IMG/VR virus record: IMGVR_UViG_2734482571_000007
Strand: one strand, 5' to 3'
Length of the DNA: 39,690 nucleotides
Origin: a virus
Taxonomy: Duplodnaviria; Heunggongvirae; Uroviricota; Caudoviricetes
The notes under the pieces were generated by a model, which did not search any database, was not told the DNA's origin, and saw only the letters and a list, made by a program, of their open reading frames with translations. Shown one piece after another: positions 1,906 to 2,549 of this stretch. The position numbers were made by a program, and so were the translations under genes. Each line of letters opens with the position of its first letter. Position 1 is the stretch's first letter.

Positions 1906-1933
1906 CAAACCGGCAGAGGACACCACCGGTTTG
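1906..1933. terminator. Hairpin CAAACCGG-N12-CCGGTTTG between convergent genes; possible bidirectional terminator
   Basis: 8-bp perfect stem; T-rich run (TATTGTT) follows on the plus strand; lies 5 nt past the stop of the minus-strand 84-aa gene. Confidence 0.35.
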
Positions 1934-1938
1934 TATTG

Positions 1939-2193
1939 TTACATCATGGTACTGTCAGTTCCGGGCTGAGCCGGGTCTGGTTGCTCTGGCTGCGCGTCGG
2001 TTTTCGGCTCATTATCAGCATCACTGGCCGCAACTGCTGGCCCAATAAGTTTTGCCAGCACTTCATCAACGTAAGTGTCGATTTGTGCCTCAAAATCCTT
2101 GCGGACCTGCGCTTTCAGCAACTTATTTACTTCACCGGAATACAGTGCCTGTTTTACCAGGTCTTCAGTGACGGTGCCTTTAATTTCTGGCAT
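1939..2193 (-). CDS. Hypothetical protein (84 aa) with acidic, Pro-rich C-terminus
   Basis: Strong AAGGAGG Shine-Dalgarno before the ATG; directly follows the 60-aa membrane-protein gene, suggesting a two-gene operon. Confidence 0.55.
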   Translation of the reverse strand: MPEIKGTVTEDLVKQALYSGEVNKLLKAQVRKDFEAQIDTYVDEVLAKLIGPAVAASDADNEPKTDAQPEQPDPAQPGTDSTMM

Positions 2194-2228
2194 GTATATC
2201 CTCCTTATGCGGGAATAAAGCCCTGCAA

Positions 2229-2411
2229 TCAGGGCTGGGTCGGGTCTTTTGGGAGCGGAGTTACCTGCGCTGTTTTACTGAGTTTTTCAGCTGCTGCGTC
2301 CTCAATTTTGCGGCGAACATAATTTCTGATGGCCTTATAACCACCACTCACCAGATATAACGCACATACTGCCGTGCAGAAATACAATAAAATAAGCTGT
2401 AAAAATGTCAT
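2229..2411 (-). CDS. Small membrane protein (60 aa from ATG at 2411; one N-terminal transmembrane helix, charged C-terminal tail)
   Basis: Hydrophobic stretch LQLILLYFCTAVCALYLV then KR-rich tail; GGGAGGG ribosome-binding site. The six-frame ORF start at 2423 is a TTG and less likely. Confidence 0.5.
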   Translation of the reverse strand: MTFLQLILLYFCTAVCALYLVSGGYKAIRNYVRRKIEDAAAEKLSKTAQVTPLPKDPTQP

Positions 2412-2426
2412 TATCCCTCCCAATTA

Positions 2427-2453
2427 TTGACATGGTGTTGACACCGGTAATAT
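2427..2453 (+). promoter_or_regulatory. Candidate sigma70 promoter (TTGACA, 15-bp spacer, TAATAT) firing rightward, divergent from the small membrane-protein gene
   Basis: Both hexamers match consensus exactly; spacer is short (15 bp); a second TTGACA lies at 2438-2443. Confidence 0.35.
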
Positions 2454-2507
2454 CTGTTAGGTAAAAAGGTGCACTGCATTTTTTGCTTTGGATATAACGA
2501 TCTTTTT

Positions 2508-2549
2508 GCCGCCGGTTTCTTGTTTTCCCTTACCGGCGGCATTTTTTTA
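2508..2549 (+). terminator. Rho-independent terminator (GCCGCCGGT stem, 15-nt loop, then ATTTTTTTA)
   Basis: 9-bp GC-rich perfect stem followed by a T-run on the plus strand; about 50-80 nt downstream of the candidate promoter and just before the esterase stop codon. Confidence 0.55.

Follow-up and report, generated by a model that had tools for sequence, protein, structure and literature searches.

A probable EcOnc33-type small RNA gene between the esterase and DUF1378 genes of a Mu-like Escherichia coli prophage

What is encoded in the 144-nucleotide (nt) spacer that separates a carbohydrate esterase gene from two genes for small proteins in a Mu-like prophage of Escherichia coli? The prophage is IMG/VR record IMGVR_UViG_2734482571_000007, a sequence of 39,690 nt that is referred to here, in its whole length, as the window. 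An earlier reading made from the letters alone (the sequence-only reading) had recognized in this spacer a promoter and a terminator pointing away from the small-protein genes, and had suggested that the short RNA made between them overlaps the leader of a small membrane protein gene, as in type I toxin-antitoxin loci. Our analysis gives a different answer. With good confidence, we consider the spacer to carry an allele of EcOnc33, an Hfq-binding small RNA (sRNA) with its own promoter and terminator that would be made in the lysogen and would act in trans. The spacer and its neighbours belong to a prophage cargo module of four genes, namely a NanS-p-type esterase gene, a convergent sRNA gene and genes of the DUF1378 and DUF826 families (Table 1).

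EcOnc33 comes from the lambdoid prophage Sp6 of E. coli O157:H7 Sakai, where it is encoded on the minus strand and ends in a Rho-independent terminator; it was recovered in five of five datasets of Hfq cross-linking and analysis of cDNA (Hfq-CRAC) and gave a Northern band of ~71 nt (Tree et al. 2014, PMC4104026, Table S2). The reverse complement of its Northern probe, AAATGTCGTTATATCCAAAGCAAAACATGCAGGAC, has an exact match in the Sakai spacer between ECs_1527 (esterase) and ECs_1528 (DUF1378), on the strand opposite the two genes. The window spacer aligns with this Sakai spacer throughout, at 80.8% identity (BLAST), and the RNA itself is 82.9% identical to Sakai EcOnc33, with 28 of 31 positions kept in the 5' region. 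It is the mapping of the probe, together with the identity over the RNA, that makes the window RNA an EcOnc33 allele. The synteny is the same as well: the RNA gene is convergent with the esterase gene, its terminator abuts the esterase stop codon, and DUF1378 lies on its other side. Sequence comparison thus establishes homology, synteny and conservation of promoter and terminator for the window allele itself. The name EcOnc33 was not found in the main texts of the literature searched.

A different family name is suggested by Rfam, whose sole hit is to Esr41 (RF02676), a full-length match at 2468-2550 (+) with a score of 22.2 bits (E = 0.76 over 6 kb and 0.031 over 241 nt). The score is far under the gathering threshold of 102 bits, however, and the match is based on a U-rich stretch and a generic GC-rich terminator. 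Moreover, the gene of Esr41 (EcOnc14) lies on SpLE1, in the neighbourhood of iha and ter and not beside an esterase gene, so the loci are not syntenic and the hit is best regarded as generic. Membership in the Esr41 family is effectively refuted by the score and the SpLE1 location, and we give it next to no credence.

The predicted RNA is about 75 nt long and ends in an intrinsic terminator with a GC-rich stem of 10 bp and a run of seven U residues (U7), which finishes 7 nt short of the esterase stop codon. The strong terminator that had been noticed at 2508-2549 is real, its limits being 2507-2548. When 2474-2551 is folded, the free energy is -23 kcal/mol (z = -5.0) and none of 200 shuffled sequences does as well. 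Among 12 variants of the EcOnc33 type, called class 1 here, the stem core GCCGCCGG/CCGGCGG and the loop core CUUGUUUUCCCU are invariant and the loop varies in length. The other RNA classes that occupy this position, described below, have a terminator of the form CCCGCCAG.../...CCGGCGGG, with a swap from G-C to C-G at the stem base. Read on the minus strand, the hairpin precedes A-rich sequence and has no U-tract, the U7 being on the plus strand only. With this A-rich flank it is not expected to stop transcription of the esterase gene. The U-tailed 3' end of the terminator is, as the analogy with EcOnc33 suggests, likely to be the site at which Hfq binds. The hairpin was missed by a generic terminator scan because its 15-nt loop is longer than the 8 nt that the scan allows. 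A coding reading of the RNA was rejected: the plus-strand open reading frames (ORFs) 2469-2786 and 2488-2604 lack a Shine-Dalgarno sequence, and loop indels in relatives break the frames.

Upstream of the RNA there are two -35-like TTGACA boxes, which result from an 11-bp tandem duplication at 2424-2446 (TTGACATGGTG followed by TTGACACCGGT). The sequence-only reading had paired the first box with TAATAT across a 15-nt spacer; the pair preferred here is the second box with TAAAAA, 18 nt downstream. Both patterns are unique in the window, with 0.00 and 0.01 occurrences expected by chance, respectively. The assignment was made from the comparison of loci. TTGAC[A/T]-N18-TAAAAA is kept in 7 E. coli spacer variants, in the 12 class-1 variants and in 18 distinct IMG/VR spacers, and its hexamers and 18-nt spacing are common to four otherwise unalignable RNA bodies from lambdoid and Mu-like phages. 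The first pair, in contrast, is degraded to TTGATA and TAATAC in the O157 (Sakai) homologue, which is known to be expressed. In the O170:H18 variant, from a Shiga toxin 2h (Stx2h) prophage (L011), an 11-bp deletion leaves a single TTGACA that is exactly 18 nt from TAAAAC. The hexamers first proposed are thus present and unique, but with their 15-nt spacing and their decay in O157 they give way to the pair that relatives keep. Judged by this conservation, the sRNA has its own promoter, TTGACA-18-TAAAAA, from which it would be transcribed in the lysogen independently of phage late transcription.

The ends of the RNA can be placed by comparison. TAAAAA aligns with CAGAAA of PasA and PasC, two sRNAs of enteropathogenic E. 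coli (EPEC) E2348/69, and the 5' end of PasA, which was reported from RNA-seq coverage and Northern size, lies 6 nt downstream, at the equivalent of window C2474. Reads of EcOnc33 obtained by cross-linking, ligation and sequencing of hybrids (CLASH) start at the equivalent CCUGCAUG. On these two grounds the RNA is placed at ~2474-2548, and its transcription probably starts near 2474 and not near 2460, where the RNA had first been thought to begin. The short plus-strand RNA as such is very likely to exist, at ~75 nt, given that the homologous Sakai spacer yields EcOnc33. A generic promoter scan, which considers 16-18-nt spacers only and requires a T at the last -10 position, missed both promoters because of these two limits. 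The same scan found no minus-strand promoter-like site in the spacer, and none that would give a leader overlapping DUF1378.

Might there be no functional RNA at all, the hairpin serving only to stabilise or insulate the 3' end of the esterase message and the hexamers being fortuitous or vestigial? Such an explanation could draw on the position of the hairpin, which directly abuts the esterase stop codon, on the atypical -10 hexamer, and on the fact that expression was demonstrated in the Sakai homologue and not for the window allele. Yet it would leave the U7 tract, present on the plus strand only, without a reason, as it would the maintenance of hexamers and spacing across four RNA classes in two kinds of phage. 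The homologous Sakai loci yield Hfq-bound EcOnc33 and EcOnc37, and the 5' region is near-invariant in the class-1 variants. We therefore regard the absence of a functional RNA as very improbable.

That 5' region is the presumed seed. Its conserved and unstructured sequence, CUGCAU[U/G]UUUUGCUUUGGAU, would pair with host mRNAs in trans, and its first 20 nt (Table 1) correspond to the EcOnc33 half of a published CLASH hybrid with arcA. In the published RNase E-CLASH data, the best-scoring EcOnc33 hybrid is with ECs5359 (5 reads, both replicates, false discovery rate 2.7e-4). ECs_5359 is arcA, and the hybrid spans the arcA start codon, making arcA the best published candidate target. The predicted pairing with the arcA start region is -22.8 kcal/mol for the O157 allele (0.8% of shuffles as good), -20.1 kcal/mol for the O170 allele (2.3%) and -17.5 kcal/mol for the window allele (2.8%).

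Several points weigh against the EcOnc33 interpretation or limit it. Expression and Hfq binding were observed for the O157 homologue only and would hold for the window prophage by analogy, and the Northern band of EcOnc33, at ~71 nt, is smaller than the 75-81 nt predicted. The -10 hexamer TAAAAA is without the usual final T, which is unusual for sigma-70; promoter strength and sigma factor are accordingly uncertain, and any sigma factor can be assigned only provisionally. As the class-1 stem core never varies, those sequences give no covariation support for the terminator, and the only evidence of the covariation type is the swap of G-C for C-G when classes are compared. At position 7, in the middle of the arcA duplex, the window allele has U instead of the G of the O157 allele, and its predicted pairing is weaker. 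The arcA link itself is a single CLASH interaction of moderate score, and it should be taken as a lead from one dataset and not as an established target. Lastly, DUF1378 or DUF826 may yet have some functional link to the RNA.

How widespread is this arrangement? Spacers of class 1 are present in 357 of 5426 complete E. coli genomes (~7%), those of class 3 in 170 and those of class 2 in 22. All 48 RNA-core loci in IMG/VR adjoin DUF1378, and all but a fragment at a contig end (L054) have the esterase gene; conversely, the esterase gene is directly upstream in 32 of 33 IMG/VR DUF1378 loci and in every complete E. coli genome locus examined. The module is situated upstream of the holin gene in lambdoid prophages and between gin and com/mom in many Mu-like prophages. 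A megablast of window 1300-2700 against a phage collection found nothing, and a more sensitive search returned only esterase homology and one Mu-like phage inserted in a Stx phage.

The slot at the esterase 3' end holds at least four mutually unalignable RNA bodies, with the promoter and the position of the terminator common to all. Besides class 1 there are class 2 (loci L074-L077 and L089), class 3, which is EcOnc37 (L078-L085, L094 and L095 3976-4076(-)), and class 4 (L091). Classes 2 and 3 have in common a motif, UUUCCUU[A/U]AUGGGUU, just upstream of the terminator. Searching the class 2-4 loci with Rfam gave nothing in the slot. At one locus, L074, the esterase and DUF826 show 100% identity to those of the window and the RNA is nevertheless of class 2, which suggests that recombination replaced the RNA body. 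Strain JE86-ST05 (NZ_AP022815.1) has a sequence identical to window 1300-2700 and, at another place in its chromosome, a second module; the spacer of the latter (688206-688373) matches the class-2 spacer of L074 at 100% identity, so that two different RNAs of this slot reside in one genome. In a single lambdoid IMG/VR contig (L089 574-1689), four tandem copies of the sRNA STnc100 (77-132 bits) were seen upstream of the esterase gene.

These patterns lead us to a broader proposal, which we hold tentatively and with somewhat less than even confidence: the esterase 3' end would be an 'sRNA socket', with a fixed TTGAC[A/T]-N18-TAAAAA promoter and a terminator abutting the esterase stop, into which RNA bodies are swapped by recombination in lambdoid and Mu-like prophages alike, and the U-for-G allele of the window would be a retargeted variant of an arcA-repressing sRNA. 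So far the bodies comprise two named types, EcOnc33 and EcOnc37, and two classes without a name; PasA and PasC probably occupy the socket as well. We did not find the socket pattern stated in the literature searched, and as a pattern across phage types it extends the descriptions of Tree 2014 and Zhu et al. 2026.

Can the two small proteins downstream of the spacer tell us more? Both are present as the sequence-only reading had described them. The DUF1378 protein, of 60 amino acids (aa), matches PF07125 (Pfam, E = 9e-32) and PHROG 494, a family of unknown function. It has an isoelectric point (pI) of 9.3, a single hydrophobic segment, N-terminal and predicted to be transmembrane, with a hydropathy peak near residues 3-21, and a basic tail; its ATG start codon is preceded by a strong and conserved Shine-Dalgarno sequence, GGGAGGG. 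The 84-aa DUF826 protein matches PF05696 (E = 6e-16) and PHROG 311, also of unknown function. It is acidic (pI 4.2), has a Pro/Asp/Gln-rich C-terminal stretch beyond about residue 51, and follows a strong Shine-Dalgarno sequence, AAGGAGG. Searches of Pfam and PHROGs with both proteins and of a large protein database with DUF826 produced solely families of unknown function, none of them a known structural or lysis family, and PADLOC gave nothing for either protein. Matches to structural or lysis proteins, which the sequence-only reading had named as counting against it, were thus not seen. Sequence search of the PDB found no relative of solved structure for DUF1378 or DUF826. In the literature searched, a single paper mentions the two proteins, and it records only that they are present between nanS-p and S.

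The named homologues of DUF826 in the large protein database are from E. coli or Shigella only, and the alignment is shallow. Among species-representative genomes, DUF1378 occurs at a single locus, in Cedecea neteri NBRC 105707 (L092 3501-3665), which indicates that the family is taxonomically narrow and that no broad covariation set can be built. That locus is in a Mu-like prophage, where it is preceded by Baseplate_J, Gp48 and a 272-aa ORF and followed by a gene for a Dam-type methyltransferase; it has no esterase, no DUF826, no convergent RNA and, in the upstream spacer, no terminator-like hairpin with a U-run. In a predicted fold of the minus-strand read-through transcript of the window (2412-2475), the GGGAGGG of DUF1378 is partly paired with CCU...CAG further upstream, within a hairpin that the duplicated region forms. 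Modelled from a single sequence, this hairpin might limit DUF1378 translation.

With its 60 residues, one transmembrane segment and basic tail, and with a divergent sRNA gene next to it, DUF1378 superficially resembles the toxin of a tisB/istR-1-type locus, and a resemblance of the layout to type I toxin-antitoxin loci had been noted in the sequence-only reading. DUF1378 would then be a membrane-damaging toxin whose translation is repressed, or whose mRNA is destabilised, by the divergent RNA. The resemblance does not go beyond the presence of a small hydrophobic ORF beside a divergent sRNA gene. The RNA gene is at least 63 nt upstream of the DUF1378 start codon, with its own promoter in between, and overlaps neither the ORF nor its ribosome-binding site; no promoter that would give an overlapping leader was found in the spacer, contrary to what had been suggested. 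The RNA is complementary to the DUF1378 mRNA in read-through transcripts only, and there at least 63 nt upstream of the start codon. Pairing in trans does no better. The RNA 5' region reaches -9.2 kcal/mol with the DUF1378 start region, a value matched by 95% of shuffles. Among the 50 start regions of the prophage, the 5' seed ranks DUF1378 41st and DUF826 40th, and the terminator loop ranks them 23rd and 19th. Trans pairing of the RNA to either start region, being no better than that of shuffles or of other prophage genes, was rejected.

The size and the transmembrane segment of DUF1378 would suit a toxin, but Pfam and PHROGs place it in families of unknown function and in no known toxin or defence family, PADLOC reports nothing, and the gene lies in an operon with DUF826 and is preceded by a strong and conserved Shine-Dalgarno sequence. 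The presumed partners also occur separately: E2348/69 has the esterase and PasA or PasC, followed by a holin gene or an insertion sequence (IS) element, without DUF1378 or DUF826, and the DUF1378 of Cedecea neteri has no esterase, DUF826 or RNA-like element upstream. The marks of a type I locus, namely leader overlap or specific complementarity and joint inheritance of toxin and RNA genes, are thus absent here; in all of these the window differs from tisB/istR-1-type loci. We judge a toxin-antitoxin function to be highly unlikely.

A role of the EcOnc33-like RNA on its own module deserves more weight. Since the spacer has no minus-strand promoter and the hairpin no minus-strand U-tract, the esterase, DUF1378 and DUF826 genes are probably co-transcribed across the RNA gene. 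If so, the sRNA is perfectly antisense to the esterase-DUF1378 intercistronic region and a secondary role in cis is plausible: when the operon is on, the sRNA could sponge or process the read-through transcript. One may go further and suppose that this is the main role of the RNA, through cleavage, altered expression of DUF1378 and DUF826, or titration by the read-through transcript; convergent transcription could also interfere with read-through. The gene is indeed embedded antisense between co-oriented genes with neither a minus-strand promoter nor a minus-strand terminator, and the RNA always accompanies the esterase gene 3' end. For PasA, which occupies the equivalent slot, the target-motif entries from RIL-seq, a method that ligates and sequences interacting RNAs, include sites at the 3' ends of two esterase genes, E2348C_0688 and E2348C_1246. 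On the other hand, unlinked host mRNAs are joined to EcOnc33 and EcOnc37 in many CLASH hybrids, and the wholesale exchange of the RNA body between classes, with similar flanks (L074), fits a trans-acting payload better, with the limit that any body is still antisense to its own locus. Control in cis as the main function is in our view unlikely, though far from negligible; it is compatible with trans action and could be a second function of the same RNA.

The window is a complete Mu-like prophage, with MuA and MuB, Mor, head and tail genes of the Mu type, gin and com/mom. Its insertion site is the rhs/ybfB-ybfC region of E. coli, and the minus strand carries its late genes. The module stands at the far end of the late region, between the gin invertase gene and com/mom, and begins with the esterase, in which Pfam recognizes a SASA domain and which is followed on the same strand by DUF1378 and DUF826, as in the NanS-p esterase moron module. 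The order esterase-DUF1378-DUF826 is identical in lambdoid and in Mu-like prophages. At its left edge, just past the DUF826 stop codon, a minus-strand hairpin with an 11-bp stem (-16.7 kcal/mol, z = -2.9) has no U-tract; nucleotide homology to lambdoid modules stops at ~1927.

Table 1. Features of the esterase-sRNA-DUF1378-DUF826 module and its surroundings (window coordinates)
Feature	Position	Strand	Remarks
gin	4696-5268	-	
NanS-p-type carbohydrate esterase, 684 aa, SASA (PF03629) and DUF6645 (PF20350)	2556-4610	-	Pfam; first gene of the module; stop codon 2556-2558
Spacer between esterase and DUF1378, 144 nt	2412-2555		
EcOnc33-type small RNA, ~75 nt (predicted)	2474-2548	+	5' end placed by comparison; 3' end is the end of the U-tract
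Conserved single-stranded 5' region CUGCAUUUUUUGCUUUGGAU, presumed seed	2474-2493	+	Near-invariant in 12 class-1 variants
Intrinsic terminator	2507-2548	+	Stem 2507-2516/2532-2541, 15-nt loop, U7 2542-2548
-35 hexamer TTGACA of the sRNA promoter (preferred)	2438-2443	+	TAAAAA follows after 18 nt; the four RNA classes all have TTGAC[A/T]
-10 hexamer TAAAAA of the sRNA promoter	2462-2467	+	Kept in compared loci; TAAAAC in the O170:H18 variant
Pair of the sequence-only reading: TTGACA 2427-2432, 15-nt spacer, TAATAT 2448-2453	2427-2453	+	Possible secondary promoter
DUF1378 gene, 60 aa	2229-2411	-	
DUF826 gene, 84 aa	1939-2193	-	
Hairpin at the left edge of the module, just past the DUF826 stop codon	1906-1930		
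Orphan ORF, 97 aa	1478-1771	+	
com/mom	330-1266	-	

Other observations were made around the module. Between DUF826 and com, after an AT-rich stretch, there is a sole plus-strand gene, the acidic 97-aa orphan ORF of Table 1, which has no Pfam or PHROG match. In its position, FORC_069 (L003) and Sakai Sp18 (ECs_4996, 154 aa, opposite strand) have other ORFs, and the region 1267-1771 looks like a second variable cargo slot. In the RefSeq record identical to the window (L093), com is annotated as frameshifted (L093 1820-2019); in the window it is an 81-aa ORF at 1021-1266 (-) that starts with TTG, has a Com-type zinc-finger motif (CRHCNKLL...CPRCK) and overlaps the start of mom. The same record has a 'tRNA-OTHER' feature at ~21303-21382 (+) of the window (L093 22101-22180), between the virion morphogenesis and minor head protein genes. 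ARAGORN finds no tRNA across the whole window, this site included.

What does the EcOnc33 assignment add? In pathogenic E. coli, prophage-encoded Hfq sRNAs such as AgvB, AsxR, StxS and Esr41 rewire host regulation. EcOnc33 and EcOnc37 have so far been only table entries. Calling the window RNA an EcOnc33 allele gives an identity to an unannotated spacer that ~7% of complete E. coli genomes carry and for which Rfam has no family. In addition, Mu-like prophages are seen to use the sRNA slot known from lambdoid ones. The assignment supplies a testable target hypothesis, in the form of the arcA start codon and a natural seed variant, and it removes a toxin-antitoxin annotation that was tempting but unsupported. 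The result is incremental and not surprising in itself.

How, finally, does the window RNA compare with the known sRNAs of prophages? AgvB and AsxR (Rfam RF02702 and RF02703) are likewise prophage 'moron' sRNAs that bind Hfq and are convergent with their neighbours, and within their families the 3' part is conserved whereas the targeting parts vary. They differ in location, being upstream of the esterase gene, near the tRNA genes that come after the DNA-methyltransferase gene, in size (51-60 nt) and in acting as sponges of core sRNAs; neither has sequence similarity to the window RNA, and neither gives an Rfam hit in window 1-6000.

PasA and PasC are closer. They are Hfq-dependent and validated by Northern blot (Pearl Mizrahi 2021, PMC8550237; Zhu, Shabalina and Storz 2026 preprint), are 79-85 nt long, and are convergent with and directly downstream of a prophage sialate esterase gene, as the window RNA is; in the literature, lysis genes are given on their other side. 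The PasC terminator abuts the esterase stop codon, and the -35 TTGACA and the reported 5' end align with the window promoter. Unlike the window, their loci have no DUF1378 or DUF826, a holin gene following PasA and an IS element following PasC. Promoter similarity beyond the hexamers is weak, at 16 of 37 positions for the O157 allele (p ~0.009) and 11 of 37 for the window allele (p ~0.28), the latter not significant, and MAFFT aligns only the promoter and the esterase end and not the RNA bodies. Membership of the window RNA in a PasA/PasC family was accordingly rejected, and the two are positional analogues only.

EcOnc37 matches the context of the window most fully. It is encoded in the Mu-like prophage Sp18 of Sakai and was recovered in 5/5 Hfq-CRAC datasets (Tree et al. 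2014, PMC4104026); the CLASH reads obtained for it match the Sp18 spacer between esterase and DUF1378. The surrounding genes are the same, with an invertase, an esterase, a convergent Hfq-bound sRNA, DUF1378, DUF826, com and mom, and so are the promoter elements and the position of the terminator. Its class 3 body, however, cannot be aligned with the window RNA, is ~100 nt long and contains a UUUUCCUUUAUGGGUUAGG motif. EcOnc33 is in the same slot between the esterase stop and DUF1378, on the strand opposite the genes, with the same TTGACA-18-TAAAAA promoter and the same terminator stem. It differs from the window RNA in its host element, which is lambdoid and not Mu-like, and in having G instead of U at seed position 7; the window allele in turn has a 2-nt insertion before the terminator, a shorter terminator loop and several deviating positions in the promoter spacer. 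The RNA family, the module and the Mu-like context thus all have precedents in EcOnc33, EcOnc37 and Sp18, and what is new in the window is an allele with its own seed and promoter-spacer differences.

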